64,000 nt of DNA from Trueperaceae bacterium (lineage in GTDB: Bacteria > Deinococcota > Deinococci > Deinococcales > Trueperaceae): positions 1,696,001 through 1,760,000 of the forward strand of contig JAXHLW010000013.1 of the NCBI GenBank assembly GCA_034521815.1. The letters are read 5' to 3'. The notes under the pieces are model-generated. The model worked only from the letters and a program-made list of their open reading frames with translations. It was not told where the DNA came from and made no database searches. Shown piece after piece: positions 22,842 to 62,717 of this stretch (position 1 is its first letter; each line of letters opens with the position of its first letter). A program made the translations under genes and the position numbers.

Positions 22842-22849
22842 GGAATCCG

Positions 22850-26095: not shown

Positions 26096-26119
26096 AACGA
26101 CCCGCTCGAACCCGAGCGA

Positions 26120-26151: not shown

Positions 26152-26182
26152 CGAAGGGCGAACGTCGTAGCGATCAGGGCGG

Positions 26183-29100
26183 CTACCAGCGGAACAGGCC
26201 GTCCCCTTCGATGCCGATCGTGAACCCGGCGTCGTCGTAGGGCGTGAGGAGGGTATCGCCGGTGCTGTAGCCCAGGCTCAGCCACAGCGAGTCGACGACT
26301 TCGATTCGGAACTCGGCGGTGAGCGACGCGTCGAACGCGCTCAGCGCCGGACGGGCGACCGCCTGGCCGTAGAGGACGGCGTCGGCGTCGCGCTCGAACA
26401 GGACGAGGGGCACGACGACCCCAGGCGCGGCTGGACCGCGAACGGCCTCAGGCGATCGCCCAGGCTCGTCTCCATCGGCAGATCGACGGCCGGAGCGCCA
26501 ACGAGCCGACCGTCGCCGGCGACCAGCAGCCCCTCGACGTCCACTTGCACGCCGAAGCCGGCGTTGATGGTGGTGACACCGTCGGCGACGACGCCGTCGA
26601 GGTACCCGATGGCTCCGCTGGGAACGAGACGTCCTGCGTGCCGGCATCGACTCCGACGGTTCATCGCTGGTCGCGTCGCCGCTGGATCCGGACGCGTTCG
26701 CGTCGGGGTCGACCGTGTCCAGGTCGGCCCGGACGGCCGCACCGAAACGGCCCTCGACGGTGGGCGCCAGTCGCAGGTCGAGATCGACGGCGTACGCGAT
26801 CGCTTCGTGCGCGCCGGCGATGGCGGCGAGCAGGTCGACGGTCGTGGCGTCGTCGGCCGGGAGGACGACGTCCAAGCCGATCTGGCCGTCGATTGCCTCG
26901 TCGCGGTAGCGAACCGCGAAGCCGGCTCGCCACTCGGTGCCCCCGTCCGTCAGGACGGCCGCGCCGTAGAGGTCGGCGTCGACCCCGTCGCCGAGCACGA
27001 AGGGAGCGTTCACGCCGAACCGTAGGCGGTTGCTGGACGTCTCGCCAGCGAGTTCGTAGGCGACCTCGAGCTCGACGCCGCCGATGGTGCGCGCGACGCC
27101 GACCTCGCCTTGCAGGTCGCCGCCTTCGAGCCGCGCGGTTCCCACGAGGGCGGCTCCGGCCACGTCGATCGAGGTGGACAGGGTGGTGAGGGGCGCCCCG
27201 CCACCGACGAGCGGTTGGTCGTGGCCGACGTCGATCCGCACCGGACCGATCTCGCCACCGACGCTCAAACCGGCACGCCACGCGGCGTCCCGCCAGTCGT
27301 ACGAGGTGGCGGCTTCGACGTCGAGCGCGCCGGTCCGCCTCGCGACGTCCAACGTGGTGGTCGCGAGATCGGCCGATTGTTCGTGGCCGATCCCGATCGA
27401 CCAGACGTCGGTCAGGCGGACGCCGACGCGAGCGTCGCCGGTCACGCCGTCGGCGGAGCGGTACCCGAGTCCGGTCTCGATCGCGACGGGGTCGAGGTCG
27501 AGCCGGACGCCGAGCGCCGCACGCTCGACGCCGCTGCCGATCATCGAGGCCGACAGGTCGGCGTCGCCGCCGTCCCAGTCGGTCGTGACCTTCAGCGCCG
27601 CCTCGAAGCGGTCGCCGTAGGACGCGCCGACCTCGACACGGGTCGCACCCAGGTCCACGTTCAAGCCGGCACCGGCGACGATGCCGTCGCGCGGGGCGCC
27701 CATGGGGACGTAGGTCACGGCGAGTTCGGGGCGCTCGCCGTCGGGGCCGAGGATGGCGACCGGGCCGATCAGGACGATCTCGGCGCCGTCCAGGACGTAG
27801 TCGACGCCCGGTTCGAGGCGGACGCGCTCGTCACCGCGCACCCGTTCGACGGCGAGACTGCCGCTGGCGGGGACCTCGGCCAACGTCACCCGGCGCAAGC
27901 CGGCGACATCGAAGCTTTCGCGCACGACGTCGCTGCGGACGACGCCGAGGTAGCCGGAGAGCGTCACGGCCTCGTCGGCGTCCACCTCGGCGCGGAACGC
28001 GGTCGCCGCGGGGCGCTCGCCGACGGCGGGCGCGGACAGGGCTCCGTAGCGGTACTCGACGCTCCAGCGGTCGTCGCGCACGATGAAGGCGATGCCGTCC
28101 TCGCTGGCAAGATCCTGCTCGAAACCGTCCTGGGGAACCAGGCGCCACGCTTCGGTCGGAACCTCCGCACGGTCGTACGGCATCAGCAGACTGGCGAAAC
28201 CGGAGTCGGGCCGCCAGGCGACGCCCAACGCGCCTTCGAGGCGAACCCCGTCGAGCCGAGCATCGACGCGGGTGCGGACCTGAGCACCGAAGCTCGCGAA
28301 TCCGGAGAACGGTGCGAGGCGGGCCGAGGCGTCGTACAGCGCGAGGTTGGGCGCACCGACCTCCTCAGCGGGCAGCAGGGCGAAGTCGACGACGTGCGGT
28401 CCGTAGCCGACGATGCGACGCGCGAAGCCGTCGATCGGGGCGAGGTCCGGCACGCTGCCGGGCAGCAGCGCGACGACGCGCACGTCGATGGGAACTTCGG
28501 CGAAGAGGTACCGACCCGCGCCGTCGCTGATCGCCGTCAGGCCGTCGGCGCGCGCGATCCGGGCCCCTTCGACGGGCAGGTCGCCGTCGCCGAAGCGGCC
28601 GTCCTCGTCGAGGTCCAGGAAGACCCGACCGAAGACCGCGCGATCGTCGTCGACGACCGCACGGACGTCCAGGATCACGACGAGGTCGAGCGTCATGGCG
28701 TCGCTGTAGACGACGCCGAACGGATCGACGATCCGCGCCACGACGTCGTAGCTGCCCGTCGCCAGGGCGTGCTCGTCCGGAACGACCAGCGTCCAGCGAC
28801 CCGTCTCGGGATCGTGATCGAGGTGGCCGTCGCCGAGCTCGTAGGCTGACCCCGTCGAGCGTGACGGTGAAGACGTCGCCGGGACGCAGCTCCGCGGTGC
28901 CGGTGACGGTGGGGGTCGCGGTGCCGACCGTCGCCTGATCCACGGTCGGCGGGTTCGGCGCTGCGAGGCGCACGAGCAGTTCGTCCTCGGTCGCGTCCGA
29001 CGTCGCGTTCCCGGCCGCCGTCGTGACGGTCACGACGACGTCGTAGAGGCCCTCCTCGAGGGCATGCTCGGTCGGAACGACGAGGCTCCAGCGACCGCTG

Positions 29101-32100
29101 GCGGCGTCGTAGTCGACCGCGCCCGAGGCGACGTCGTACAGGACGCCGTTCACCACGATCGTGAGCGTATCGCCGGCGAGGACCTCGGCCGTACCGCCGA
29201 GGACCGGCGTCGCGTCGTCGCTGACGAGCGGGTCGACCGTCGGCACGGCGGGCACGCGCGTGTCGACCACGATCTCGCCCGTTCCCTCGGCAGGGCCGGT
29301 GACGCCGTTGCCCGCCAGGTCGTAGGCGATGATCGTCACGTCGTAGGCGCCGCTGGCGAGCGCGTCCTCGGCCGGGATCGCGATCCTCCAGGTCCCGTCC
29401 GGATCGAGCTCCGCAGGATAGGTCGTGCCGGCGACGGTGACCTCGATCCGATCGGTGTCGCCCACGTCGTAGCCACCACCGAGGATCGGTGTCGGATCGG
29501 TCGTGAGGACCGGATCGAGGGTCGGCATCGCGGGGGGCACCGTGTCGACGACGATCGTGCGTTCGGTCGTGTCGCTGGCGTTGCCCGCCGGATCGTAGGT
29601 GGTGGCCTGGAGCACGTAGGTGCCGTCGGGGAGCGAGTCGTCGGCACTGCGGTCGACGCTCCACCCCTCTCCGTCCCGGTCGGCGATGGTGTCGAACACG
29701 ACCTCGCCCGCATCGTCGACGAGGACGATCTGGACGTCCAGTCCGGAGCGGCCCGTGCCCTCGAAGAGGAGGGTCGGATCGTTGCTGACGAAGTCGCCAT
29801 CGATGCCGCTGTCGTCCGAGATCGCGTCGATCGTCGGGGCGGCATCGGTCCCGCCGGTGATGACGATCGTCACGGTGGTCTCGGTCCCATCGGCGGCGAT
29901 CAGCGGGAAGGTGTCGACGAGCTCCTCACCGTCGTCGAGGGCGTCGACGTCCGGGCTCGTCCCATCCAGCCGGTAGCTCCAGACGCCGGACGCGCCGACG
30001 GTGAAGGTGGCGTAGCCAGCGTCGCTGACCGTGGCGGTATCGACGGGCTCGAAGGCGTCGTCCGTTCCATCGACGTCGCTGGTCGCTGCGTCGCCGCCGA
30101 CGACCTGAACGACCGCGTCCTCGTAGACGCTGCCGGACAGGTCGCCGGCGAAGACGGCGGGATCGTTGGCGCCGGTGATGGTGAAGGCGATTCGGGCGGG
30201 CGTGTCCGCTCCCTGCGGATCGCTGACCACCACGTCGAAGGGGACGACGGGGGTGGACCCGGCGGACACGGCGTCGATCGTCGCGGCATCGGGCGTGAAG
30301 GCGAAGTCCCCATCGGCGTTCAGGCTCAACGTGCCGTACGGGCTGGTGCCGTCCTGCCCGGTCGCGAACGACCAGGCCAGGTCGGTGACGAGATCGTCCT
30401 CGTCGACGTCGCTCGCCTCGAGCGTGCCCGTGATCGGGTCGAACGCGTCGGTGGCGGGCGTATCGACGTACCCGAAGTCGTACGTGCCGCTCACGACCGG
30501 GGCGTCGTCGACGCCGGTCACGGTGACGATCACGGTCGCGCTGCGCGCGCCGCTCTCGCCGTCGCTGACGGTGTAGACCATGCGGGTCTCGACGCTGTCA
30601 CCGACGTCCAGCCGTTCGAAGTCGCCGTCGGGATCGAACGTCAGTTCGCCCGTGGACGCGATCAGGAAGGTGCCGCCGTCGCTGCCGGCCGTCGCGACAC
30701 CCACGTTGGCGGCGGCGCCGTCGACGAGTTCGACGAACAGCGCGTCGCTGTCGAGAGCGGCGTCGTTGTCCAGCACGTCGGCTCCCGACAGGGCGGTGTC
30801 CTCGTCGGTCTCGTACAGGTCGTCGGTCGGTTCCGGACCGCGGTTCGAGACGGTCCAGGTGAACGTCTGCGTGGCGACGAGTCCGGACGCGTCGGTGCGC
30901 GTGATGGCGACCTCGTAGACGCCCCGGTCCACGCCGTCGCCGACCTGGCTCGCGGCGGGATCGATGGTGCCGGACACGAGGCCGGTCGTGGGATCGATGG
31001 AGAGCGAGCCGGGCGCTCCCGCCATCGCGTAGGAAACGGTGTCGGGCACGTCCACGTCGGTGAAGAACGTCGAGACGTCGAAGGACACCGGGCTTGCGTC
31101 GAGCCCATCCTGGTCGGGGATGGTCCCGACGGTCACCGGTGCGTCGTTGCTGCCGGTGATGACGATCGTGACCGTCGCCTCGGTACCGTCGGCGGTCCGG
31201 ATCGGGAAGGTGTCGTTCAGGGTGGCGCCGGACGCCAAGGCGTCGACCGTAGGATCGGCGTCGTCCAGCACGTAGCTCCAGTCGCCCTCCGAGCCGACCG
31301 TGTACGTGCCGTAGCCGCCGGTGCTGGAGCTGAGGGTCGCGACGGCCTCGAAGGTCGTCGCGGAATCGACGTCGGACGCGACGGCGGTGCCGGTGGCGGT
31401 AGCCGACCCACGTGGACCGTCGGACTCGACACCGGCTTCGACGACGCCGCCGGTGAGATCGCCGGACACGTCGGCCGGATCGTTCGCGCCGGCGATGGTG
31501 ATCGTCACCGTCTGGACCGCCGAGGCGTCGGACGCGGTGCCGGAGTCGTCGGTCGCGACGACGTCGTAGGCGAGGACGAGGGTGTCGCCCTCGTTCAGGT
31601 AGGTGAAGGTCGCCGCGGCGGGCTCGAACGTCCAGGTGGCCGTGCCCTCGACGCTGCCGGAGAGGACCACGTCGTCCGCGTCCACGACGAGCATCGGGAG
31701 CAGATCGTCCGTCGCGTCCAGCGTGCCGAGCGGGCCGCTGGTCGTGAGACCCGTCACGGCCACGCCGACCGTGTCGCTCAGGTCGACATCGCGGACGGTC
31801 AGGCTGCCGGTCGCGCGGAACGGCGTCGCGTCCTCGGCGAGCGTGGCCACGTCGGAATCGCCGCTCTGGAGGGCGATCTCGGGCGCGTCGTTCACGCCGG
31901 TCACGGTGACGGTCAGGCTGGCCGTGTCGCTGCCGCCCTCGTCGTCCGTGATCGTGTAGCCGACGGCCGTGTCGACCGACTCGCCATCGGCGAGGTACTG
32001 CAGGGCCGAGCCGGGGGCGACGGCGTAGCTACCGTCGGAGGCGAGGACGAACGAGCCGAGCTCCGAGCCGGTCACGGTGCGGCTTCCGCCGTCCGTGATC

Positions 32101-35100
32101 GCCAAGCCGGAGACGGCCGAGACGCGCAGGGCGTCGCCGTCGACGTCGCTGGCATGGGCGGCGGTCAGCAGGCCGCCGGCGGCGTCGACGCTCAGAACCG
32201 TGTCCTCGTCGGTCGTATCGGACACGGGCGTCGCGGTCGGCGCGGGGTTGCGGATCGTCCAAGCGAACGTCTGCGACGTCGACGCGCGCACGTCGTCGAC
32301 GTCCGCGTCGGACGGGTCGCGGTCGTAGGCGGTGATGGTAACGGCGTAGGCACCGTCGCTGTCCGGACCACCTTGGCTGGCGCTGCCGTCCACGGTGCCG
32401 GTGACGACGCCCGTAGCTGGGTCGATGGCCAGGCCCGCCGGCGCGTCGGAGAGGGCGAAGGTCAGCACGTCGCGCGCGTCCGGATCGGCGAAGCCGCCGG
32501 ACGGGTCGACGGACACGACCTCCGCGTCGTCGGACGTGCGCGGGGCGAGGACGGTGCTGGTGGGCGGGCTGTTGGCGCCCGTCAGCGTCAGGGTCACGTC
32601 CACGGTCGCCGTGCCGCTGGCCTCGTCGCTGTGGAGGACGGTGTAGACGACCTCGATCGTCTCGCCCTCGCCCAGCTCGCGCAGGGCGGCGTCGGCGATG
32701 GCGAAGGTCCAGCCGGTCGTGCCGGCGTTGGCGCGGCTGTCGACGCCATCGCCGCTCAACCTGAGCGCGGTATTCAGGACGGCGTCGGTCAGGCCGGTCG
32801 GAACGATCGCGGCGCCTTGCGGCGTCACAGCGCTCACGGCCACGGTTGCCAGCGAGCCGTCGGTCGCGTCGATGTCGCCGAAGATCACGGCGCCGGTGGC
32901 GGTCAGCTCGCCGCCCACGACGTCCACGCCTTCGGTGACCGTGCCGGTCAGGGTCGAACCGAGTCCGTTCACCTCGGGCGCGTCGTTGACGCCGTTCAAA
33001 GTGATCGTGACGGTCTGCGCCGTGGCGCTCGCACCGTCGTCGACCTCGATCTCGTAGGCGACCTCGACGGCATCGCCGGCAGCGAGGAACTGCAGCAGCT
33101 CGTTCGCCAGCGTGAAGGTCCAGTCGATCGTGCCGGCGTTCACGGCATCGGAGTCGGCGCCAGGGCCGGACAGCGTGAGCGGTCCTGCCGCGATCGCCAG
33201 GGCGTCCGCCAGCTCGGTCGGCAGGCTCACGCCGGCGCTCGGGGTGATGGAGAGCAGGTTCGTGACCGACGCGGTCGGCGCGTCGGCCGCATCGGGATCG
33301 GCGAAGGAGAGGTCTCCGGAGGCGGACACGACCGTGGCGTCCGCCGGATCGGTCACGTCCTCCGTGACAGAGCCGGTGACGACGCCCGGCGTGACGATCG
33401 GGGCCACGTTGCCGCCTTGGAGGGTAACCGTGACGGTCTGGTCGGCCGTGGCCGTACCGTCGTCGAGTCGGACGACGTACGTGAGGACGAGGCTCTCGCC
33501 CGCGTCGAGGTACGCGAAGGCGTCGGCGGAGGCCGTGAACGTCCAGGTGACCGTGCCGGTCGTCGCACCGTCGGCCACGCCTCCGGTCGCCACCATGAGG
33601 GCTCGCAGCTCCTCGGTGTCCAAGGTCGAGCCATCGGTCACCGATCCGGCTTCGACCGTGACTGCCGCGATGGACGCGCTCACGACGTCGCTGCGGTCGA
33701 GGTCGGCGGCGGCCAGCGTGCCGGTATCGGACAGGACCTCACCGCTCTCGCTCAACGTCGTCGAGGTGGGCCCCTCGCTCCAGGTCGGCGCGTCGTTCGC
33801 GCCGGTCACGGTGATGGTGACGTCCTGCGTCACGGTCACGCCCTGCGTGTCGCGCGCGCCGAGGCGGTAGAGGAGGTCGATCGCTTCGCCCGACGCCAGG
33901 CGGCGGAAGGTCTCCGCGCCCGGATCGAACGTCCAGGTCGCCGTACCGGTCGTGGCGCCGGCCGTGACGACGGTCGCGTCGGTCGGACCGGAGGCGGTGA
34001 ACATCGACGCCAGGTCGACGTCGCTCCAGCCGACGGATGCGCCGCTGCCGGTCACGCTGACCAGCGTGGCGGTCGCGTCGACCACGACGGTGTCGCCCAG
34101 GTCGACGTCGGTGAGAGTCAGGGTGCCCTGCTGGGTCGCAGGGACCGTTCCCTGCGACAGCGTCGCGGTCGCCGAGTCGGTTCCGACGACGCTGAACGTC
34201 GGGGCGTCGTTGGCGCCGGTGATCGTGACGGTCACGATCTGCGCGGCGCTCGTGGCTCCGTCGCCGATCGTGACGCGGTAGCGCTCGACGATGGTCTGGT
34301 TGGCGGTCAGGTCCTGCACGTCCGCGTTGGCGACGGCGTAGCTCCAGTCGGCTTCGCCGGTGGCACCATCGGCCGCGGCCACGCGCGGCGTGGCGTCGGC
34401 GGCGAACGTTCCAAGCTGGGTTCCGCTAGCCGCCGTGCTGTCGATGAACTCGGTCGCGACGGTATGCGCATCGCTCCCGTCGGCATCGCCGAAGGTCAAC
34501 GTGCCGGCGTCGGTCAGGTCGCCGCTGCCGTCGACGGCGACGTCCTCGGTCAGTGCGGAGGTCACGTCGCCGCCGGTGATGACGGGCGCGACGTTGCTGC
34601 CGGTGATCACGATCGTGACGGGCACCGTGGCCGAGGTCGCCGGGGTCGGCGTCGCGTCGTCGCTCACCAGCACGTCGTAGACCACGGTCAGCGTCTCGCC
34701 TGCAGCGAGGTACCCGAGTTCAGCGGTGCCGGCGCTCCAGGTCCAGGAGACAGTGCCGGTCGTCGCGCCCGCGGGCACGACGGGCTCGAAGGCGACGTCG
34801 AGCATCGCTGCGAGCGCCTCGTCGGACGGCTGCGCGCCCGCGGAGGCCACGTCGCTCGTTCCGTCGTTCTGCACGGCGCTGGCGAGCGTGGCGGACACCG
34901 TGACGACGTCCGCGACGTCGACGTCCGCAGCGCTCAGGCTGCCGCTCGCATCGAGGGCGTCCACGCCCTCCTGCAGGGTCGCGCCGTCGCTGTCCCCGGT
35001 GCCGACGCTCAGCGTCGGGGCGTCGTTGGAGCCCGTCAGCGTGATGGTCACGCGCACGACGGCGCCGCCGCCCTCGCCGTCGTCGACGAGAACGTCGTAG

Positions 35101-38100
35101 CGCTCGACGATCTGCTGACCGCCACGCAGGAACTGGAGGTCAGCGTTCGCCACGTCGTACGTCCAGGTGGCGACGCCAATCGCGCCGCCGGTCGCGGCCG
35201 TCGGTGACGGTCGCGTCCAACGTTCCGAAGGCGGCCCCGCCAGCCGCGCTGGTGTCGACGAAGCTCGCCGCCGCCGTGTGCGCGTCCGTGAGATCCAGGT
35301 CGGTCAGGTCGATCGTGCCGGTCGCGGACAGGCCGCCGTCGATCACTGCGCCGTCCTCGCTGACGGCTCCGGTCGGGTCGGCCGAGGCGGCGTCAGGCGC
35401 GTCGTTGGCGCCGCGCACCACGAAGATCAGCGTCGCCGTCGCGTCGTCGGCACTCGTTCCGTCGCTGACGGCGGCCGGGATGGAGATCGTCAGGGTTTCG
35501 CCGGCGGCCAGGAAGTCGAGATCGACGGCGCTCGGCGCGTAGCTCGCCGCGAAGGCGAAGTCGCCCCCGGTGGTGGTCGCCTCGGTCGGATCGAAGGTGA
35601 CGACGCCGTCCGCCGCGAGCGGCGCGAGGGCCGTCTCGGCGTCCGCGTCCAGGGCGCCACCGGACCAGGTGATCGTGGCGCTGGCGAGATCGACGCTCGG
35701 TGTCGCCGTGTCGCCGACGTCCGCGTCCGTCACGGCGAAGGGAACGGTGTCGGACAGCGCTTGCGCGCTGGCGTCGGCCGCCTCGTCGATGACGGTGGGC
35801 TGGATCGCGAGGGTCGGGGCGTCGTTGGTGCCGGTGACGGTGATCGTCAGCGACGCTGCGTCGGCCCCGCCCTCGTCGTCGGTGAGGGTGAACGGGAGGC
35901 TGGTCGGCGCTTGCTCGTTCGTACGCAGCGCATCGAAGTCCGTACCAGGGTCGAAGGCGTACGTGCCGTCCGACCGCACGGTGAAGGTGCCGCCGTCGCT
36001 GCCGGCGACGATGACGTCGGACCCGTCGGCGATCGTGGCGCCCGCCGCGATCGAAACGCGCAGCGCGTCGCCGTCGGCGTCGGTCGCGCCGCTCAGCAGC
36101 GCTCCGGCAGTCTCCGCCGCCAGGATGGCGGCGTTCTCGGCCGTGGCGCCGGCCACATCGCTCGCGACCGGCACGGTGTTCACGAACACCAGCGTGAAGG
36201 CGTCGCTGACGGCGTCACCATCGGCATCGGTCGCCGTAACGGTCACCGTGAAGACACCGCGGGTCGTGTTCACGCCGTCGATCGTCTGTTGGCTGGCGTC
36301 GGCGGGAACGGTGGCCACGCCGTCGAGCTCGAGCGTGCCGGCCGTCGTCATGGTCAGCCACGCCGGCAGCCCTTCGGCGGTGAAGCTCAAGGCGTCGCCG
36401 TCGGCTGCCGTGAAGCTCCCGCTCACGGCCAGCGAGAAGCCGGCGGTTCCGTCCTCGACCGACCGATCGGCGATCGGCGTGACGACGGTCGGTCCGACGT
36501 TCGTGACGGTCCACTGGAAGCTGGTCGTCACGGTCAGGCCGCCGGCGTCCGTCGCCGTGACGTCGATGCTGTACGGGCTGCCCGCCGACGCGCCGGACGC
36601 GATCGTGCCATCGATCAGGCCGGTGTCGGACAGCGTGAGCCCGTTGGGGAGCGTGCCCGCCGTGACGGCGTAGCTGTGGGTGTCCCCCATGTCGACGTCG
36701 CCGAAGAACGGCGCGACGTCAAGGTTGGCGGCGGCGCCGTCGACGCTCGCCTGGTCGGCGATCGTGCCTGCGGTCGGGGCGTCGTTCGCGCCCGTGATGG
36801 TGACCGCGACGGTCGCCTCGGTGCCGTCCTCGGACCGGACGACGAAACTGTCGGTGAGGGTGTCGCCTGCCGCCAGCGCGTCGACCGTTCGGTTCGCGTC
36901 GTCCAGCGTGTAGGTCCAGGCGCCGGCCGCGTCGACCGTGTAGCCGCCGTAGCCGTTGGCGCTGGCCGCGTCGGTCGTGACGGCCTGGAAGGCGTCGTCC
37001 GTCCCGTCGGCGTCGCTGGACGTGAAGGCGCCGCTGGCCGTCACGTCTCCGGGCGTGCCGTTGGCGGTGCCGCCGGCCTCGGTGACGCTGGTGTCGGGCG
37101 TGCCTTGCGGCGTGATGACCGCCGCGTCGTTCGTACCTGCGATCCAGATCGTGACGGGGAACGACGCGAAGGAGCCCGCCCCGTCCGTCGCGCGCAGGCC
37201 GTAGGTGAGGGAGATCCGCTGGCCCTCGGCGAGGCCGTCGAAGGCTTCGGCTTCGCTGTCGAACGTCCATGTCAGCGTGCCGGTCGTCGTACCCGCACCG
37301 AGGTCGGAGGCGGCGCCCATCATCGCGAGCAGCGCCGTATCGTCCAATGCGCCGGGCAGCGTGCCGGTCGTCGCGACCGACGCGACGCTCGCATCGACCA
37401 CGTCGGCCAGGTCCAGATCGCCGACGGTCAGGCTTCCCGTCGCGGTCAGCTCGGCGTCGGTATCGGTCAGGTCGGCCGTGCTGTCGTCCCCGCTCTCGCG
37501 GGTGAGGGTCGGAGCGTCGTTGCTACCGGCGATCGTGATCGTCGCGGTCGGCGCGTTCGACGCGGCGTTCGCGGCGCCCGAATCGTCGGTCGCGACGAGG
37601 TCGAAGGACAGGGTGATCGACTCGGACGCGGCGAGGAAGTCGAGGTCCTCGGTCGTCTCGAACGTCCAGCCGGCCAGGTCGCCGTCGATCGTCAGATCGG
37701 CCTCCAGGGCCGCCGTCAGCGCGGGCGGGAGCGTTCCGCCGCTCCAGGTCGCGTCGCCGTTGCTGCTCGCGGTGACCGAGGCCACGCCGTCGCCCGCATC
37801 GACGTCCGCGACCGACAACGTGCCGGTCGTGCGCAACGTCGCGCCGGCGTCCGCCTCCGCGATCGTGCCGCTGGCGTCGTCCAGCGTCAGGATCGGCGCG
37901 TCGTTGCTGCCGGTCAGGGTGATCGTGACCGTCTGCGTCGCGATCGGGTCCGCGGTGGCACCGTCGTCGATCGTGACCGTGTAGACCTGCGTGCGGACCT
38001 CGCTCTCCTGGAGCGTGTCCAGATCGGCCGCGTCGACGGTGAAGGTCCAGGCGACCGTGTCGGCGCCTTGCTCGATCGCGTCGAGCGTCAGGGCGCCCAG

Positions 38101-47100: not shown

Positions 47101-50100
47101 GTCGGCGCGTCGTTGACGCCGGTGATCGTGATCGTCACGTCCTGGGAGACGGCGCTGACCTCGTTGCCGTCGCTGGCCGTGCCGAACCCGGCGTCGTCGG
47201 TGACGGTGATGCGGTAGACGACGGTGACGGTCTCGCCGGCGGTCAGGTACTGAACGAGCGCGTTGTCGAGGGTGAAGTCCCAGGCCACGGTGGCGGCGTT
47301 GGCGGCGGGGGTCGTACCGTCGCCTGGCCCGTTGAGCACGAACGACGTGGCGAGGCTCTGCAACGCCGAGTGGAGATCCGTGGAGACCGATTGCGGCGCC
47401 GTCACCTCGGCCGACGACGAAGGCCGCGCCCGCGGTCGCCGTGTCGCTCTCGTTCGAGGTCGTCGACGTCGATCGAGCCCGCTCGCGGTCAGGTTCCCGC
47501 CCGTGAGCCCGGCGTCCTCGATGAGATCGGCGCTGACGGACGCGTTCGTGAGCTCGGGCGTGTCGTTGCGCCCCTCGATGGTGATCGTCACCACGCGGTC
47601 CGTGCTCACGGAGCCGTGCGCACCGGTGTCGGTCGCGCGCAGGGTGTACTCGAGGATCAGCGACTCGCCGGCGGCGAGGTCGTCGAAGGTCGCCGCGTCG
47701 GAATCGAACGACCAGGTGAAGTCGCCGCTGGCCTGCGCGTCGGCCAGGCGACGTCACGCCCGTGACCGACAGCAGGGCGGTGCGAGCACCGCCGGTGTCG
47801 TTCAGCAGCGCGGCGTCCAGGCCGGCCGTCGTGCTCTCCGCAGCCGATCTCGGAGCTCTGGACCATCCACCACGACGGCGTTGGTGACGTCGACGTCACC
47901 GAGGACCAGGGAGCCGCTGGCCGAGAGGCCCGACGGCGTCGGTCTCGACGATCGTGGCGGCGTCCTCCGTGCCGGTGATGGTGGGCGCGTCGGTTGGTGC
48001 CGTCGGTCGTGACGGTGAGCGTCGTCGTCGCCGTCGCAGGCGCGCCGGAACGACTGTCGGTGACGGTGTAGGTGAACACGTCATCGAGACTCTCGCCGTC
48101 GGCCAAGGCCTGCACGTCGCCATTGGACGCGGTCGACCGTGTAGGCGAAGCCACCGCCGGCAGCGAGCTGCAGGGCGCCGTACGTTCCGGTGACGCTCGT
48201 TGCGACCCCGGTCGTCGAGGGTCCGCTCTGGCTCCCGGCCGCCACGCCCTGCACCGCTCAGGACGTCCGCGAACTCGCCAGTCGCGGCGTCTGGATCCGT
48301 GTCGGCGCCGCTCGCGTCCGGCGAGCCGGCGATCACGTCGCCCGCCACGCTCGTCGCGTCCGTTGGCATGGTCGCGCCGACCGGTTCGTTCACGTTCGCC
48401 GTGTCGGCCTGCACGAGACCGGCAGACGGTTGATGATCACGACGATCGCGTCGGTGACGCTCAGCGCGCCACCGCCGCCTTGGTCCTGGCCGGTGCCGGC
48501 CGTGCCGCCGCCCGTGGCGTCGGAGTTGGCGTCATCGAACGTCACGTCGAGCGTCACGCGGTCGTACGCGAGCGCTCCCGGCGTGCGTCGCCCCGTTGGC
48601 GTACGTGATGGCCCGCAACGTCGCGTCGACGGCCGCCGACGTGGCGCTCCCGTCGAACGTGATCGCGAGCGTGCCGCCGGCGTTCGACACCGTGCCGATG
48701 GTGTCGCCCCGAGCACGACGTTGCCGCCCTCGAACGCCAAGCTGCCGCCGGCGCCGAACAGGTCGTCGCCGCTGGCGATCCCCTGCCGCTGGACCTCGAG
48801 CGTGGCGCCGTTCCAGTTCCCCGCGGGCGTGTCCGTCCCCTCGGGCAGGGCCTCGAGGTCCAGGTCGCCCACGTCGGCGTTCGCGTCGATGACGACGGGC
48901 GTACCGTCCTCGAACGTAGCTGTTCGCAGCGGTTTCGTCGAGGCCCGTGAGCGTCGGAGCGTCGTTGACGCCGACGACCGCGAAGGTCCCGGCGATCGGC
49001 GTCGCGTCGGTCGACGCGCTGCCCGTCCCGGTTCCGGTGTTCCCGCCGTCGTCCAGCGTGACGGTGACGGTGCGATCCGGGTACGCGCCGGCGAAGGTCG
49101 GGTTCTCGCTGGTGCTGGCGTACGTGAGCTGCCCGAGGAGGGCGGCCACGGCGGCTCCGGTCGCGTCGTTCGTGGTGAACGTCATGACGAGGTCCGCCCC
49201 GTCGCCCCCCGTGACCGTGCCGATCACGTCAGGACCGGCACCGTCGTCGTACGAGATGGTCGAGTCCGCGACGGTGATCCCACCCGCACCGCTGGCGACG
49301 CTCAGCACGTCCCCCGTTCGGTACGCGTCCAAGGCCACCGTCAGCGACCCACCGGCGAAGTGATCCGCGTCCAGGTCGGCGACGCTGGTACCGGTCAGGA
49401 ACGTCAGGGGCGCGGCGCCCTCGGTGAAGGTGCCCTCGACCGTGGCCTCCGCATCGACCGGATCGTTGACGGGCACGACGGTGACCGTCGCAGCGATTCC
49501 GATGTCCGAGGTGGTGTCCTGACTGGTGCCGCTGGTCCCGCCGTCGTCCTTCGCCGACGCGATCGTGATCGTTCGGGCGCCGGCCGTCGGGTCGTCCAGC
49601 GTGTTGCGGTACGCGAGCGTGTCGATCAGCGTGCCGGCCGTCGTATCGGCGATCCCCACCGTCGTATAGGTCACGGTCACGGTCGTGGCGGTCCCGGACA
49701 CGGTGATGCTTCCGTCGGTCCCGGTTCCCGTCGCCATCATCGACCAGGTCGACCTCCACCCCGTCGATCGTCGACGTTCTCGGCTGCGCCGTCGGCCAGT
49801 CCGTCGACGGTGAAGGCCAGCGTGAGGATCTGGTCGCCGGTGTCGATGCTGTCCACGTGACGCTATCGAACAGGTCTGCCGCGCTGCGTCGTTCTCGAGG
49901 TAGTCGAGGGTCAGACCCGTGGCGGACACGCTGGGCGGGTTGTTCTGGTCGGTGATCGTGATCGGAGCCCGACAAGCTGGCCGTCGAGGCGTCCGGGCCG
50001 CCGGCATCGTCACCGGCGCCGTCGACGTTGTCGCCGTCGCTCAACGTGACCGTGAACGCGCGCGGGTCCGAGGTCGGGTTGTCGGACCGGTTCTCGAACC

Positions 50101-53100
50101 GCACGGCCTCGAGGACGCTCGCCGCTCGCGTGACGGTGGCGCTCCTGGTGAAGTCGATCCGGAGCGCGGTGGCGACGCCGTTCGAACCGCCGTCGATGTC
50201 GGCGACGACGATCCACGAGGATCCGTCGAAATAGCGCACGGTCGGACCGTCGGCGTAGACGGCACCAGTTTCGATCGTGACCTCGGCCAGCGTGGGCAGG
50301 CCGAAGACGTCACCCGCGTCGTAGGCGGCGGTGGTCCAGCCGACCGTGACCGAGCCCGCGCCGAAGGCGTCGAGATCCGCGGTGGTGGCGACGTCCGGAT
50401 CGTCGATCGTGACGCCGGTCAGGAGCGCTTGCGGTGTCGTGCCATCGCCTTCGGTGGCCGACTCGATCAGGGTGCCGTCGAACGGCGTTCCCGTCAGCAG
50501 CGGCGCGTCGTTCCGCGCCGCCAACGTGACGTCCAGCGTCACGGGGTCGGCCGTGACGCGCGACTCCTCGTCGTCGGCGGTGGTGTCGAAGGCGGCGGGC
50601 GTGGCGAAGGTCGTGGTCGTGATCGGGCCGGCGTCCACGTCCGGGGTGCCGCTGTTGGCGCAGCAGCCGGACGGGGACGGCGTCCTCGACGCCGTGAAGC
50701 GTCAGTCGCGGGCGCGCGCCGACGGCCACGCCGTCGGTGTTCGCGTCGGCGTTCGGCACGAAGCGCACCGCGACGTCCGCGGCGAGCACCAGGGCGCTGC
50801 GTCGGGGTGGTGGTGAAGGCGCTCAGGTCGCGCCAGTCGCCGTCCAGGAACACCTGCCAGGCGCCCAGACCTGCGTCGTCGTGGCCGGCGACGGCCACCG
50901 AGGCGAGCGCGCTGCTCACGCCGTCCGGATCGTCGAGGAAGGCGTCGAGCAGGACACCGAAGGTGGTCCCCTCGTCGGAGGCGACGAAGGCGTCGTCCTC
51001 GACGCCCGCGAGCGTCGCGCCCTGCGTGAGGGTGGGCGCGTCGTTGGTGGGAGTCGAGGCCGATGCGCACGGTGGCGCTGCCGGAGAGCTCGCCGCCCGT
51101 CCCCTGGGCCCCGTCGACGTTGCCGTCGAGGAAGGTCAGGCCGACGTCGATGTTGCCGCTGACCAGCGCCGGGGTCGGTGTTCGAGTAGACCACCGCTCG
51201 CAGCACGGCGTTCGCGGCCGCCGGGGTGGCCTGGGCGTTGAAGGTCACCGTGAAGGTGCCCGTGTTCAGCGAGCTGCTGGTGAGGGTGGCGACGGTGACG
51301 CCGTCCACGCGCACGGCCGAGCCGTCGTCGTAGACGCGCACGTTGTTGCCCAGATCGGTGGAGGCACCGAGGAGCGAGAGGCCGCTCCCGGTCTCCAGCA
51401 CGAACAGGTCGAGAGGGGCGGGGTCGGGGCTGGCGGGCGACGGTCAGCCGAGCACCGGTCGAAGGTCGCCTCGCCACGCTCGGTGAGCTCGACGTCGACG
51501 ACGCTGGCGAGATCGGGGTTGTCGGCCCCGACGGTGTCGAGGCGGATGGGCACACCGGCGACGTTGACCCCGACGGCCTCCACGAAGTCGATGGAGTAGT
51601 CCTCGCTGCCCAGGTCCACGATCGCCGGGGCGTCGTTCACCTGCGCGACGACCGCGCCGACGGTGGTACCGACGCTGCCGACGTCGCTGGTGGCGTCGAC
51701 GGTGGTGGCGTCGACGAGTTCGCGGCTCGCGCCGTCGCGTGAAGGACGCGCGCGCCGCTGTCGTCCACGGGCAGCACGGTGAGTGGGCCCGGCGCGCCGC
51801 CGGGGCCGCCGATGGTGCGGGCCGCGCCGTTGAAGTCGGGGGCGGGGACGAAGCGCAGGCGCGCGTCCGTCGGCGAGCGCGAGGCTCGGCGTCCGGCGCG
51901 CACCGCGCCGACGTCGCGACCAGGTGGCGCCGGCGTCGGTGCTGTACCGCCAGACGCCCTCGGTCGGCGGCGTCGGCCGCATTCGGCGGCCACCACGACG
52001 CCCGCGAACCCGCTCCCGGCGAGAGGGGCGTCGGCGTCGGCGAACACGCTGCCCAGCAGCGTGGCCACGGTGGCGCCGACGTTCGGCCCCGTCGGCGACG
52101 TCCTCGTCCAGGGCGAGCGTCACGGGAGCCGTGAAGCTGGGCGCATCGTTGACGTTCGCGACGCTCACCTCGAAGCCGATGGGGTCGCTCGCGAGCGCGC
52201 CGCCACTGCCCTGCGCGCCGGCGTTGCCGTCGACGAACGTCACCTGCACGTCGATGGGGCTGGTCTGCGCGTCGGCCACGTTCGCGTAGGCGACGCGCCG
52301 CAGCACGTTGCGCACGTCGTCCACGCTGGCGCCGGCGGTGAAGGCGACGACCAGCGTGCCGGTGGCCGATCCGTCGGTCACCTGCGCGACGGTGGTGCCG
52401 TCGCGCTGCAGGTCGCTGCCGCTCGCGTCGAGCGGGTCGAGGCCGGCGATCGCGCCCGTGAGCACCGAGAAGCGGTCGCTGGCGACCGCCCCGCCGACGC
52501 GGCGGGCGACCACGGTGGCTCCTTCGAAGGTGTCGATCCCCTGCACCGTCAGTTCGGCGTCGTCGACGTCGAGATCGTTCGCAGACGTTCAGTCGCGCGG
52601 GGGTACCGAGGGCGCCCGCCGCGTTCCCCTCGGTGTAGGTGACGGCGTCCCCGGTGCCCGAGAGCTCGGGGGCGTCGTTGACCGACCGCACCGTGACGTC
52701 GGCGACGGCGGTCGCGGAACGGCTCGAGTCCTCGAGCGTCGCCGCGAGCAGGTCGATGGCGCGGAACTCGAAGCGCGAACGCCAGTCGTCGCCGTCGAAG
52801 CCCGTCAGCTCGCTGTGGAAGTCGGTGGGCGGCGTGTACGATCATGTCGGTCGCTTGCGCGGCGGTGATCACGTGCGTGCCGTTCGGCAGCGTTCGGAGA
52901 AGCCCGCGGGTCACGACCGACGTGGTCGCATTCAGGAGTTCGCCGTCGCTGGTCGCAGCTCGCCCAGCAGGCCGGTCCGGGTCGCGTCCGTCGCCGGCAC
53001 GTTCACCTGGTAGTGCGTCAGCGACCGCGTCGTCGGTCTTGGCCCCACCGTCCACGTCGCCCGCGGTCAGCGAGAAGGCGAGCGTGCCGGTCCTCGTCCA

Positions 53101-56100
53101 TCGTCCGCTCGAGATCGGTGACGGTGGGGACGTCGTTCACCTCCTCGACGGCCACGTCCACGGATCGGCTCGCCTCGAGGAGCGCACCGAAGGAACCGAC
53201 GTTCCCCTGGTCCTCCAGGCGCGCGTCGAGGCGGGCGGCACCCTGCAGGTCGTTGAAGTCCGGGGCGGGCGTGAAGGTCACGCCCGCCGCCAGTGCGGCT
53301 CCGACGTCGTCGAGCGTGCCGACGAGCACCAGCTCGTCGCTGCCCCTCCGGTCACCGGAGACGGCGCTGCCGTCGAAGAGCGTCAACGTCCCGTGCTGCG
53401 CGGACAGGGTGACGCGGAACGCCACGGCGGGATCGCTGGTCGCGCCGCCGGCGACGTCGAGGTCGGAGATCGCGAAGCCGGTGGTCGTGACCGGCTGGTC
53501 CTCGTCGGTCGTCAGCGACGCCGGGGCGTCGATCGTCGGGCGCGTCGTTCACGGGTCGCACGTTCACGTCGAAGCTCGTGCTGGCGACCTCGTCGTCGGT
53601 CGTGCCCGTGCCGGTCAGCACGAGACCGGCGTCCACGACGGCCGCGTCCTCCGGGTCGAGGCCGTGATAGCCGTCGTCGCTCACCGTGACGGTCACGGTG
53701 TCGATGCCGTTGGCGTTCGGCGCGCCGAGGTAGACGAGCGTCGCCCCGGTCGCGTTGGCGTCGGCGTACGTGCCGGTGATCGTGAGCGCGCCGGTGCCGT
53801 CGCCCGCGAGGGCCGCATCGCCGACGGCGGTCGCCGTAAAGCGTTCCGAGGCCGGCGCTGGTCACCTCGACGACGAACGGTCCGGCATCCGGCAGCAGCG
53901 TGCCGGAGGTGTCGTACGCGTCGGGATCGTCGAAGGCGATCCCGACGAGCGCGAGCTCCACGTCCTCCGCACCGACGCGGTCGCCGGCGGTGGTGAGCGT
54001 GGGCGCGTCGTTGACGGGCGTGATCTGCACGCGGAACCGGATCTGCGGCTCGTCGCCGCCGCCACCGTCCGACAGGCGCAGGGTGGCGGCGTCGCTGGTG
54101 CCCTGGCCACCGTCGTGGCGGTACGCGAGACGACCGTCGATCAGGTCCGCCTGGCTGAACGCGCTGTTCACGCCGAGGGGCGCGCCGTCGAACAGGAACC
54201 GCCCGTGGTCGAAGTCGTCCACGAGGCGGAACTGCACCTGCACAGCGGTGTTGTCGGGGTCGAACGCTCCGAGGTGCTCGGTGGTCGACAGGGTGCGCGT
54301 GGCGCCCTCGAGCACGACGAGCAGCTCGTTGACGATCACGAGCTCACCGTCCTCGCCGAGCTCGAGGTCGGGGTCGACGACCGGGTCGATGTTCTGGGGG
54401 GCGATGTCGATCGTGACCACGGCGCTCGCTCTGGCGTTGACGGCACCGGTGCCGTCGTCGACGACCAACGTGAACGCGTCGGCGTAGTTCACCGACCCGT
54501 CGTGCTGGTACCGGAGCCGGCCCTCGAGCACGTCGGCGGCCGGCACGGAGGAGGTGGCATCCACCACCTCGTAGGTCGCGGGATCGTCGGGGTCGTACGA
54601 GGCGGCCGTCTGCCGGCGCACCTCCCCGTACGACGGGGCGTCGCCCACCGAGAACGCGAGGTCGTTGGGCGTGGCCAACGGCTCGGCCGGCTTGTCCGTG
54701 TCCTCGCCGTCGTCGTCCAAGTAGCGCAGGACGGCGTCGTCGATGGCCACGGATCCGCCCTGCAGCGCGAGCGGAACCTCGTCCCGAACCTCGAGCACGG
54801 GCCGGTCGTTGAGCGGTGTCGCGTCGATGGCGAAGGTCGCCGGCTCGACGATCTCGGAGCCGTCGGTGTAGCTGACGTCGAAGGCGTCGAGGAAGCGCTC
54901 GCCGCCATCGTGGTGGTACGCGAGGCGGCCGGCGTCCACGTCGGCCTGGGTGAAGCGCTCGCCGGCGTGCAGCCGCCGTCCGTCCAGGCGCAGCAGGCCG
55001 TGGACGGGTTCGTCGTCGAGGACGAAGCGCAGCTCGGCCGGCGCCTGGTCGTCGTCGACGACCTGGAGCGACGCGGAGCCGATCGGCGCACTGGCGCCTT
55101 CGTCGAGGACCAGCGTCTCGTTCGTCGCCAACGTCGGTTCGAGGTTGACGAAGAACACGGTGAACGCGGCGGTGGCCGTTGCGGTGTCGCCCTCCCCATC
55201 CTCCAGGGTGTAGCTGAACGAGGCCGTGCCGGCGAAGGTTCGAGTCGGGGTGAAGGTCACGGAGCCGCCGGTTTCGAGCACGACGGTTCCGCCGACGGGC
55301 GACGCGACGCTCTGGATCGCCAGCGGGTCCACGCCCGAATCGTTCCCCAGCAGCGCGCTCGCCGGGATCGCGATGGGCGTTCCGCCGCGCACGGCGTCGG
55401 CGAGCGGATCGTCGCGCGCGACCGCCGCGCCGGTGCCGGGATTCTCGCCACCCCCGGCCACCGGGTCGCCGGTGACCGGGTCGATCGGGTCGAGGACGAT
55501 TCCGCCCGGACCCTCGATGCCCCCGCCGGCGGCGGGGGTGAAGGTGATGTCGATCGGCACCTCGAGGGCCCGCAGCGCCCGCCGTCGTACACGCCGCCGA
55601 TCCGATCGGTGACGACGCCATCGGCGTCGACCGCGTAGGTGCGATCGCCGTCGCGCACGGTGACGACGAACGCGTCGGTCGCGTTCCGCGTCTGAGCGCT
55701 GCGGTACGCGATCCGCTCGGCGTCCACGTCGGCCTGGGTGAAGGTGGCGCCCACGCCCAGCGGGGCGCCGTTCAGGAACAGCATCCCGTGCGCCGGCCGC
55801 TGCTCGAGACGGTAGGTGACGACGTCGGAGTCGACGTCGGCGGCGCACAGCTGGTCGCCCGTGACGTCCGCGGTGCTCGCGACGGACAGGTCGAGGGCCA
55901 GCGGGTCCAACGGGTCGGCGCAGAGCACCGGGTCGTCGTTCACGGGCCGCACGGTCACGTCCACGCTGGCGGGCGTCGAGAGGACGTCGTCCCCGCTGCT
56001 CGGTGCCCGTGTCGGTGACGATCACGTCGAAGGCGACGTCCGCCGGGAGCCGCTGCTCGGGGGCGGTGTGGCGCAGGATCAGGCGGTCTAGGTCCGCGTA

Positions 56101-59100
56101 GCCGAGCACGAAACCGACCGCGACCGGTGCGCCGTCGAACTCGAGCACCGCCTCCGGCAGGCTCTCGCCGAGGGTCGCGGGCAGGCTGTCGATGGAGACG
56201 GTCAGGTCGCCCGCGGCCGTCCGATCGTCGTCGACGGGGAGGGTCAGGCGGGTGGTGCTCCCCTCGAACACGGTGGCACGCGCGCTACCGACGTCCGGCG
56301 CGATGTTGACCTCGGCGATGTCGATGGGGACCGCCACCGGACCGACGGTGCCGCCGGCACCGTCGCGCAGCGTGACGGTGAAAGCGTCGATCAGGTTCGT
56401 CGAGCCGTCGTGGGTGTAGTCCACCGACGCGAGGTCGGCGTAGGCGAAGGTGCGGCCCGCGAGGGCGCGGGTGCCGTTCACGGTCAGGCGCCCGTTCGTG
56501 GGCCCCGCGTCGATACGGAAGATGAGCTGCTCGTCGGCGTTGTCCACGTCGGTCGCGACGAGGACGTCGGTGGAGAAGGCGAGGTCGCCGCCTTGCGGCG
56601 CGACCGCGACGAGCGTCTGGCCGTCGCCGGGACGCGCGTCGCCGGGGACGTACAGCACGGGCGGATCGTTCACCGGCGTGACGTTCACCGGGACCGACAC
56701 GCTTCCGCTGCTGCCGCCGATGCCAGGGATGGCGTCGGTGACGTCGAGGACGATCGTCTGCGCGGCCGCGGGCTCGCGCCCGTCGTGGACGTAGCGCACG
56801 TGGCCGGCGTTCACCTGGGCCTGGGTGAACGTGCCCCCCTCCGCCAACGCGGTCCACGTCCCGTCGCCGGCGACGTCGAGCTGCAGCTGGCCTTCGGCGA
56901 GGTCGGTCCCGGCGGCGACCGTGAACACGATCGAGGCCGGCCCGGCCTCGTCGTCGGTGACCTCGAGCTCGTCGGGCGTCAGCACGCCGGCGCCCCCCTC
57001 GTCCACGCGCAGGGCCCGACCGGGCTCGATCGTGAACGGCGTGTCGGTCGCGGTCACGACGATCGTCGCGGTGCCGCCCGCGCCGTCCAGCCACGCTTCG
57101 TCCGCCAGGGCCGTGACGGCCACCGTCGCGCGCGACGCCGACTGCGTGAAGGCGGTTCCGTCGGGCGTGGTGGCGTCGAGCGCGTGGACGGTCAGGTCGC
57201 CCACCTCGCCGAAATGGCCGGCCGCGGGCACGAAGCGCAGCAGCGCCTCGGCGGGGAGCGCCAGGGCGCTCGAAGGATCGACCGTGCCGACCCCGTGCCA
57301 GCTCACGCCGTTGTTCGTGCTGTAGCTCCAGACCCCTTCGCCGGGGGTGCTGGCGTCGTCCGCGACGGCGAGCGCGAGGAGCGCGTCGCCGTCGACGTCG
57401 CCGTACGTCCCGAGGAACAGGTCGCTCAGGCGTTCGCCCTCGGAATCCAGACTGTTGACGGCGACCGCGTCGAGTTGCGCGTCGCCGGTGGTGGGCGCAT
57501 CGAGGACGTTCGCGACGTCGATCGCGACGGTCGCGGTGTCGTCCTTCGCCTGATCCTGATCCAGCGATCCGCCGAGGTCGTCGACGGTGGCGGTCAGGGT
57601 GACGGTGCCGAAGAAGTCCGGGGCGGGCGCGTAGGCGAGGTCCGCGAGGGCGGTGTTCAGGTCCGCCAGCGTTCCGGTGACGCGAACGCGCGTCCCGCCG
57701 TTGGCGTCCACCTCATCGACCGTCAATCCGGCGATCGTGCCGAACGTCAGGGTGCCGGGGTCGGCGACCGTCGGGCTCCCCTGCGCCGCGACCGCCACCT
57801 CGACGAGCACCGTGAGGTCGGTCGTCCCCGCATCGAGGTCGGTCACCGCGAGCGCCGGTAGCGCCAGCGTCGCATCCTCGTCCATGGCCTGCGGGCCGGG
57901 CACGGTCAGGCTCGGGGGCTCGTTGAACTCGGCCACCTCGAGGGTGACGGTGGCGGGATCCGACTCAACGCCGGCGGCGTCGATCGCTCTGAAGGTGAAC
58001 TCCGTGGAACCGTCGCGGTTCGTCTCGGGGACGAAGCGCAGCGCGGCGGCGCCCTCCGCTTGGGCGCGCGGAAGGGCGGTGCCGACCGTGGCCTCGCCAT
58101 CGCCCACGACCTCGAGGGTGCCCCAGGCGGGCAGCGACTCGATTCGGTAGTCGGTGATGGCCGCGTCGGTGTCCGGGTCGCTGCCGCCGTCCACGTCGCT
58201 GCCCTGGAGACCGAACGTGACCGCGACGTTCTTTTGCGTGCTCACCGTGGCGGAGCTCGCGACCGGCGCGTCGTTGACCGGCGTGACGCTCGTGGCCAGC
58301 GTCGCGCCGAAGGGGTCGAGGCGCTGCTGCGACCCGTCGTCGACGTCCGTGGTTCCGCGCGTCGAGCCACTCGTGAACGTGCCGACGCTCGGCGCGCCGG
58401 CGTTGTCGTCCACCGCGTGGAGCCGCAGCGCCCAGGGGTGCCGAACCGGTCCTCGGCCGGCAGGAAGCGCAACTGCGCGTCGCCAGGCAAGAGCAAGGCG
58501 CTCGCGGGCGAGACGACGCCCACGTCGAACCACGACGCGCCGCCGTCGGTGCTGTACTGCCAGACGCCCTGCTGTGCGGTGGCGGCATCGTCGCTCACCG
58601 CCACGCCGGCGAGGTCGTCGCCGTCGACGTCCGCGAACGCGGTGACGCGCGACGCGACGGGGACGCTGGCCGGGTCCGCCGTGTCCTCGGCCACCGCCGG
58701 CAGCGCGTCGAGGGCGCCGGTGGTCGGACGATCGGGAACCGGGGCGATCGTCAGCTCGAACGACAACGTCGTCGTGTTGCCCGTCGGCGCCGAGAGGTTC
58801 GATTGCACTTCGACGTCGATCGTGAGGTCGCCGAACCAGTCGTCCGCAGGCTCGAAGCTCAGGTCGCTCAGGAACGCGTTGACGGCTTGCCGGTCGCCGT
58901 CGGTGGAGAGCTCGACCGCGCGGACTCCCTCGGACTCGAGCAGGCCGTCGCCCCCGACGGCCCGCACGATCGCACGGTAGGTGCTCGCGTCGGGGCTTTC
59001 GACGCTCAGCTCGATGCCCGCGAAGGAGAACGTCGTGTCCTCGGCCCCCGTCTGGTGCCCGGGATCCGTCACCACCGGCGCGCCCTGCGCCGCGACCGTC

Positions 59101-59183
59101 CCTCCTGGCCAGCCGAAGGACGCGGACAGCAGCACGGCGCATGCGATGACGAAGGAAAAGCGGGTGGCGATGCGCGTGAGCAT
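26183..59183 (-). CDS. Giant repetitive surface adhesin (~11,000 aa) with Sec signal peptide, cadherin-like/CSPG/VCBS/Ig repeats, an SdrD-B-like domain and a C-terminal beta-barrel-like region; split into many ORFs by apparent sequencing frameshifts
   Basis: AGGAG RBS and ATG 59183 (MLTRIATRFSFVIACAVLLSASFGWPGGTVAAQ). Continuous VNDAP/GTNDAP repeat boundaries run across ORFs 58242-59342, 53512-59268, 42170-44101, 35140-41496, 28365-35153 and 26183-28741. At the junctions I checked, frame changes fall inside repeat units with no intergenic gap or new RBS. Ends in GFTIGIEGDGLFRW. Confidence 0.75.
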
Positions 59184-62677: not shown

Positions 62678-62717
62678 GGCTTCGTCCTTTCGTCGGTCCG
62701 GGAGGCTCGTCGCCGCC

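Follow-up and report, generated by a model that had tools for sequence, protein, structure and literature searches.

A giant Ig-array protein joined to a predicted 38-stranded barrel in a Trueperaceae genome: probable fused form of a two-gene fibre-plus-barrel display system

SprA, to judge from the available parts of PMC10994853, is a single-chain barrel of 36 strands, inside the pore of which the beta-sandwich C-terminal domain (CTD) of the substrate binds. Three outer-membrane barrels of 38 strands have been predicted in Deinococcus radiodurans, for which the available part of PMC9388160 gives no function, partner or operon; one sentence there, assigning no role, is the print mention that was found. 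The present analysis concerns a stretch of 64,000 nucleotides from a Trueperaceae bacterium of the Deinococcota (assembly GCA_034521815.1, contig JAXHLW010000013.1, positions 1,696,001 to 1,760,000; G000:C13:1696001-1760000 in our numbering), hereafter the window, belonging to a genome (G000) with 71% G+C and a completeness of 83.5%. The region 26183-59183 on its minus strand had been described in an earlier note, made from the sequence alone, as a giant adhesin with a signal peptide and its own C-terminal beta-barrel. The encoded chain of ~11,000 amino acids (aa) is probably the fused form of a fibre-plus-barrel surface-display system, type V-like and self-anchored. In its relatives the fibre and the barrel come from two adjacent genes, and this suggests an as yet undescribed manner in which bacteria present giant proteins at their surface.

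In the window copy the region is not one open frame. The repeats had earlier been taken as ~30 kb of unbroken sequence, and this part of the description has to be given up, as a codon-model path through the region requires 67-72 one-base shifts; the same path rebuilds one chain of 10,989-10,992 aa with zero internal stops. An intact copy is found in G008, a genome of the same genus, as a single open frame of 8,513 codons (8,261 aa counted from the ATG), spanning a signal-peptide-like start to the final Trp, with neither a stop nor an intergenic gap between array and barrel. The two giants share 86-88% DNA identity over four blocks, and the G008:C2 contig (L002) carries the barrel at 83% identity to that of the window. 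The junction at 28845, where removal of one base had been proposed to join the array to the barrel, proved to hold a one-base insertion at 28846 that is missing from the intact G008 copy and from a short contig of the metagenome run X1. The cadherin-SdrD-barrel join recurs in a third lineage (P0002/P0295), at 67% identity; the N-terminus there appears to be cut short. The fusion of a giant adhesin array to the barrel is real.

The start at ATG 59183, with its ribosome-binding site, was confirmed; the N-terminus resembles a signal peptide by eye and by a crude heuristic, with two Arg, a hydrophobic core and VAA followed by Q. A Cys at position 15 of the signal peptide is absent from G008 and is therefore not part of a lipobox. 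At the other end the chain reads FRW-stop at 26183 and closes a region that is modelled as a barrel (see below). The giant has no SLH, RTX, LysM or Autotransporter match in Pfam; the patterns GGxGxDx[LFI] and LPxTG occur nowhere in its read-through translation, in agreement with what had been noted by inspection, and no RTX nonapeptide is present in the G008 copy. The Pfam scan gave no match in the last 948 aa. A promoter and terminator scan of the locus called nothing, including the hairpin 3' of the stop (Table 1).

The last 777 aa of L002 were modelled with AlphaFold2 from 49 sequences. The resulting barrel has a mean predicted local distance difference test (pLDDT) score of 81 and a predicted template-modelling (TM) score of 0.72, with low confidence in residues 1-72; by our own count on the DSSP string it consists of 7 strands, an inserted beta domain and 31 further strands, making 38. 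The C-terminal region is thus predicted to be a membrane barrel, as the earlier note had supposed. A link that follows an odd-numbered strand is typically longer than one that follows an even-numbered strand (median 16 vs 13.5 residues), and such links vary more (standard deviation 1.5 vs 0.45), as outer loops would; therefore both ends of the barrel are, in the model, most likely periplasmic, with the insert and the long loop 3-4 facing outward. The insert is similar to phage tail attachment domains (Z 8.4-8.9, root-mean-square deviation (rmsd) 1.4-2.7 over 63-70 residues) and shows a weak match to positions 603-688 of the SprA profile in 6 of 46 relatives (E 0.012-0.26); the best TIGR04189 score, 12.8 bits against a cut-off of 200, is confined to one domain of 40-90 aa. 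An insert lies between strands 7 and 8 in SprA also. Foldseek placed ushers first for the whole barrel, at a TM score of ~0.2-0.3, and the best structural comparison was with VDAC (Z 15.1, rmsd 9.4 over 242 residues), that with the SprA structure giving Z 12.0 and rmsd 10.0 over 330 residues. Sequence searches of the PDB with the barrel returned no solved match, and the barrel has no Omp85, ShlB, POTRA, Usher (PF00577) or Autotransporter (PF03797) match in Pfam; an Atlas usher score of 0.86 counts as no more than a lead.

A search with the giant found homologues of 24-31% identity across most of the barrel (E values down to 9e-28), and the family aligns over its full length. Profile A3, of which the giant is itself a member, matches it at E 1.9e-133. 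From these alignments the barrel can be assigned to a large-barrel family of the Deinococcota that is annotated as DUF11 and is without a family name. The barrel profile finds 1,227 representatives at E 0.001, and matches occur in 205 of 300 Deinococcota genomes, including 100 of 108 in the family f2, taken to be Deinococcaceae; in the window's own family 39 of 128 genomes have a match. Named relatives are from Deinococcus and Deinobacterium, one relative being auto-named an usher, and the family is probably the same as that of the D. radiodurans 38-stranded barrels. DR_1461, considered as the D. radiodurans member, was rejected, being part of a TamB homologue according to the available part of PMC5382914. 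Look-alikes in Pseudomonadota and Armatimonadota score 0.95-0.96 in the Atlas, a recognition below the Atlas threshold. Among the matches listed, outside which stand 175 matches of the phylum-wide search, G008 alone has a frame of more than 2,500 aa. Further giant fusions were found in none of 1,481 candidates when the barrel region was compared with proteins of 2,291-7,291 aa (those above 7,291 aa being unsearched), and P0002 was the only one among proteins of 1,191-3,400 aa; two metagenome scans confirmed none among 563 and 598 pattern matches, and a plasmid search found nothing. In a quick-method tree the giant groups with other fused forms (support 84), a grouping that is not claimed here. 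One genome, G080 (C13; L074, L075), has seven barrel matches, among them two near-identical barrels, each preceded by a fibre that reaches 3,195 aa or more; the fibre scanned has Calx-beta and beta-helix domains.

The organisation of the relatives is informative about the giant. Neighbourhoods were read at 34 loci (33 distinct), picked among the best matches and short forms, and in 32 of the 33 a separate Ig-array fibre gene lies directly upstream of the barrel gene. These split fibres, which are mostly ~900-1,400 aa long outside the window's family and mostly 2,400-4,100 aa within it (exceptions 437 and 956 aa), end in an SdrD-like domain followed by a last domain with a TDPxxxW-like motif. 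The split fibre of G005, of the same genus, is a frame of 4,117 codons with DUF11, and that of G017 has 16 Big_9 stretches. A model of the fibre end was built from 30 loci and found the 2 that were held out, the remaining one having no partner. The domain preceding the barrel in the giant matches the SdrD-like part of these fibres at E 8e-16 to 1e-15, and the last (TDPxxxW) domain is absent from the giant. The SdrD-B-like domain named in the earlier note therefore stands by homology, without a direct Pfam match in the giant; in relatives the homologous fibre domain scores SdrD_B or CarboxypepD_reg, weakly. Of 150 family representatives, 15 carry an SdrD-like domain in front of the barrel in the same chain; of 21 split-type barrel proteins, none does. 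The fused architecture described earlier thus recurs among barrel homologues and stops short of being general, most relatives being two genes. The split operons (L066-L079, L030-L047) usually have further signal-peptide-bearing Ig/DUF11 genes up- and downstream, which are without a docking domain and are possible minor subunits or tips.

A complex of the G005 barrel with its fibre end was predicted along with three controls, using our own alignments, for which the benchmark holds only roughly. The pair scored 0.79 against 0.00 for the best control, a level at which 116 of 157 solved pairs pass, along with 2 of the 215 mismatched ones. The runs agree in at least 82% of contacts, with a partner pLDDT of at least 73, and the ~220 confident contacts between docking domain and barrel involve only partner residues 19-120, the part that the giant retains. 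On the barrel side the residues contacted alternate along strands 1-3 and 31-38 and are mostly polar or glycine; periplasmic turns and loop 3-4 are contacted as well. We read this model as an SdrD-like domain that docks on the inner wall of the barrel at its seam. The lumen residues R46, R614 and Q632 are kept in the giant.

These observations can be arranged into a mechanism. The giant would be exported by Sec, and the barrel inserted by the barrel assembly machinery (BAM), perhaps with TamB. The docking domain would then occupy the pore, its C-end facing the periplasm, where ~ten residues would link it to strand 1. In SdrD-like beta-sandwiches the N- and C-ends lie at opposite poles, and therefore the N-end of the docking domain would point outward and the array would leave through the pore. 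The upstream array would thread out C-end first and fold with Ca2+ outside, giving a filament of roughly 70 modules, of the order of 0.3 micrometre, tethered to its own barrel, which would serve adhesion or aggregation. BamA and TamB are encoded in G000. No HlyD-type adaptor (TIGR01843) was found over cut-off in five of five genomes, G000 being 83.5% complete and the ABC and TolC parts unsearched, and to this extent the search gives no sign of a dedicated type I secretion system (T1SS) that would account for the export. PF03797 was found neither in the giant nor in the G000 genome, with a control that rang in 3 of 14 genomes; a genome-wide ShlB search was blank, its control being silent too. 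The TamB gene of G000 (G000:C13:582487-586569) lies in a frame of 1,360 aa, against 2,941-3,513 aa in three congeners, and is probably another assembly break.

The D/T/A/G/V-rich array gives Pfam matches to Cadherin_3/4/5, Big_9, Big_13 and He_PIG and has at least 54 NDxP-type module ends with a median spacing of 144 aa. The barrel-proximal repeats match those of MpAFP and SiiE best, in a low-confidence model (folds 4p99, 2yn3 and 5irb); a single-sequence prediction for the region before the barrel was of poor quality (pLDDT 52) and left the docking domain unfolded. Residues 600-2300 of L002 as query matched 176 giant proteins. Among the best 120 of these, the named kin are DUF4347, cadherin, VCBS and tandem-95 proteins, mostly of Proteobacteria, Cyanobacteria and Planctomycetes; PF00353 is listed in 15, PF03797 in none, and the giant's barrel occurs in none. 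The array of the giant probably descends from T1SS-type adhesins that were taken over from other phyla. The G008 copy is without ~10.2 kb of modules and holds ~2 kb not present in the window. That these 10 kb were lost through a collapsed G008 assembly is unlikely, because the window repeats are diverged (listed copies 60-83% identical to the reference).

The gene appears to have been inserted as a unit. Its flanking genes adjoin in G004, G007, G005, G008 and G009, the last being additionally without the left neighbour gene, and of the 11 genomes of the genus, 2 contain the N-terminus of the giant. The G008 copy lies at another site with the same 166-bp upstream region, a probable promoter that would travel with the gene, and the same downstream hairpin. 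Horizontal spread is suggested because the identity of the giant to G008 (86-88%) exceeds that of the neighbouring operon (76-83%), and genomes that are closer (90-91% identity, fragmented assemblies) are without it. No integrase or transposase is present among the Pfam matches of the flanking ORFs scanned. The amidohydrolase/ABC operon that flanks the giant in the window also has a split fibre and barrel ~3.5 kb from its other end in G005 (G005:C6:196934-212826, L080).

The condition of the window copy bears on how far the giant can be taken at face value. It is conceivable that the fusion is functional in the lineage and that the window copy is a pseudogene decaying through frameshifts, given its ~70 shifts and a density that is ~0.4 per kb in the flanking genes and rises to ~9 per kb in 44-54 kb. 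We regard this as very improbable, as the read-through path has no internal stop, one-base insertions relative to G008 exceed deletions (73 vs 22, some of them paired alignment gaps), ordinary neighbour genes also bear one-base indels (6 in 15.7 kb vs both G004 and G007), and protein identity to G008 is still 79-82% in 48-54 kb (66% in 45-48 kb). Short contigs were compared from salt pan metagenome runs of low depth, in which no contig spans the giant; two of these runs, X1 and X2, are one sample that may be the source sample. Their contigs (12 indels listed, 5 further ones outside the listing) lack the window indels at 28846, at 35203 and at five places in 45593-45936. The dense zone is accordingly read as badly polished assembly, and the ~70 shifts are probably assembly errors. 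About four of them fall within the barrel, near 26660 and then at 26506, 26479 and 26418, and therefore part of the listed 852-aa open reading frame (ORF) is out of frame.

Two further explanations accept the intact chain and place the array elsewhere. The barrel may be an outer-membrane anchor or pore, with the Ig array as a periplasmic spacer or scaffold like the SlpA stalk and the docking domain as a plug of the pore. Both barrel ends are predicted to be periplasmic, the predicted contacts include periplasmic turns and an outer loop able to roof the pore, a family member (P0029) has an N-terminal LysM domain, and Deinococcus SlpA carries a periplasmic N-terminal part on a 30-stranded barrel (available part of PMC9388160). 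We consider this unlikely for the giant, in which ~10,000 residues of Ig modules would be far beyond a periplasmic spacer, SLH and LysM are absent, and the modules are kin to extracellular adhesins; the length of the array differs by 10 kb between congeners, and the distribution is patchy and mobile. The passenger may otherwise be exported via the barrel or another route, such as a secretin of the type II secretion system or type IV pilus (T2SS/T4P), and be cleaved and released as a matrix protein, leaving the barrel no lasting anchor. Many autotransporter passengers are cleaved, and the split fibres are not covalently tied to their barrels. With no protease domain among the giant's Pfam matches over cut-off, and with the confident docking contacts of the model, release seems improbable.

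The type V-like, self-anchoring giant of the earlier note is thus supported, with the amendments that the barrel has 38 strands and that the relatives are mostly split. Several points weigh against it. Surface exposure of the passenger and the orientation of the docked domain are steps that we infer, and in the model the outer loop 3-4 touches the docked domain, above which it may shut the pore. The complex model is of the G005 pair and not of the giant, and the halves of a split gene pass such a comparison more easily; in the giant the conserved lumen residues D63 and R711 are both changed to G. No solved look-alike was found by sequence or fold, and the giant's barrel sits on a long branch (1.84) in the quick-method tree. 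One locus of the 33 (L037) is without an upstream partner, and the choice of loci was non-random. No contig spans the window's own copy, and run X2 shows one-base indels at 33006, 35564 and 40087, three positions at which the frame of the window is unbroken; the low-depth contigs therefore err too.

A wider interpretation is offered tentatively, as somewhat less likely true than false. The 38-strand barrel family may have no relation to type V barrels and form the translocon of a separate secretion or display system, perhaps as a remote relative of SprA without a motor. It would recognise a folded SdrD-like domain in its pore and thread Ig fibres of 1,000-11,000 residues, from a neighbour gene or the same chain, to the surface; the giant would then be a T1SS-type array re-routed via Sec and grafted on the docking domain, as a mobile single-gene cassette. 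A full-text literature search, outside which most subscription papers lie, found no account of the operon, the docking domain or the giant fusion, and the available parts of PMC10629564, PMC10120038, PMC12153261 and PMC5382914 do not describe a fibre-barrel system. The barrel family, with matches in roughly two of every three Deinococcota genomes searched, is in this way given a function that can be tested. Split operons are present in genera that are harmless and amenable to laboratory work. The fused giant marks a minimal unit of signal peptide, any Ig array, docking domain and barrel, and suggests that Sec and one barrel can handle a cargo of 8,000-11,000 residues without a known energy source.

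Table 1. Features of the giant gene and its surroundings, in window coordinates
Feature	Position	Strand	Remarks
Whole single-gene insertion	26092..59478		flanks adjacent (empty site) in relatives
G+C hairpin 3' of stop, without T tail	26120..26151		13 bp; by eye; kept in G008
Predicted 38-stranded outer-membrane beta-barrel	26186..28345	-	~four shifts in window; intact in L002/G008
Small beta domain between strands 7 and 8, predicted outer side	27686..27937	-	
SdrD-B/CnaB-like docking domain, homologous to near-C-end domain of partner fibres	28367..28654	-	
Barrel-proximal Big_13-type Ig repeats	28680..29850	-	hold the 28846 insertion
Passenger of diverged cadherin-like/VCBS/Big_9/He_PIG modules	29850..59087	-	12% Asp, 0.1% Lys
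Passenger modules missing from G008 copy	31590..41816	-	~10.2 kb
Zone dense in one-base indels	44000..54000	-	89/109 non-triplet indels vs G008
Sec/signal peptidase I-type signal peptide	59088..59183	-	~32 aa; by eye
Putative promoter region common to G008 copy at unrelated locus	59184..59349	-	166 bp
Shine-Dalgarno AGGAG	59191..59195	-	7 nt 5' of ATG; kept in G008

Among the other genes of the window, a sugar catabolism cluster of PfkB kinase, DeoC/LacD aldolase and Gfo/Idh/MocA oxidoreductase genes (59354-63707, minus strand) lies directly upstream of the insertion, and a 1,153-aa protein with an N-terminal GGDEF and AAA/STAND-like NTPase matches is encoded at 12883-16344 on the plus strand. 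At 21421, 22089, 25122, 25378, 25386 and 11248, within or next to ordinary genes, the window has one-base indels not shared by G004 and G007; the genes affected encode a peptide-binding protein, ABC permeases and one membrane protein without a Pfam match, which we take to resemble a spermidine-synthase fusion. A 761-aa double-permease ORF at 21449-23734 may be an artefact of such indels.

Comparison with the described systems places the giant beside several of them. The 38-stranded barrels of D. radiodurans (available part of PMC9388160) are alike in phylum and strand count; the ORFs of the barrel family listed in genomes are about 300-2,500 aa long (up to 2,854 aa in the best 150), against 8,261 and ~11,000 aa for the giants. 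With the T1SS giants SiiE, LapA and MpAFP the passenger shares Asp-rich cadherin/BIg modules; unlike T1SS/RTX adhesins, the giant is without RTX and has a signal peptide and its own barrel, a predicted Sec signal being present as well in Pseudoalteromonas BapP (available part of PMC12153261). Ushers (FimD/PapC) and type Vb systems likewise provide a wide dedicated barrel for Ig-fold cargo in the same operon, whereas the giant's barrel has a TM score of ~0.2 to ushers, its 38 strands and lack of Omp85, ShlB and POTRA matches set it apart from type Vb, and no chaperone gene occurs in the loci read. SprA (available parts of PMC10994853) is comparable in its very large single-chain barrel and in the logic of a CTD held in the pore, and differs in size (~2,300 aa vs ~720 aa) and strand number (36 vs 38), without homology over the whole barrel; the system of the giant has no known carrier or motor, and its cargo is fused or next door. 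Type Va autotransporters similarly combine a Sec signal, a passenger and a C-terminal barrel in one chain, and BamA is available in G000. Their barrel is the 12-stranded, ~300-aa PF03797, whereas that of the giant has 38 strands in ~700 aa and is preceded by a ~10,000-aa Ig/cadherin passenger and a predicted in-pore docking domain, in a family where split two-gene forms predominate. The giant would work like a type Va protein, its passenger passing through its own barrel, and falls outside that class by the nature of the barrel itself.

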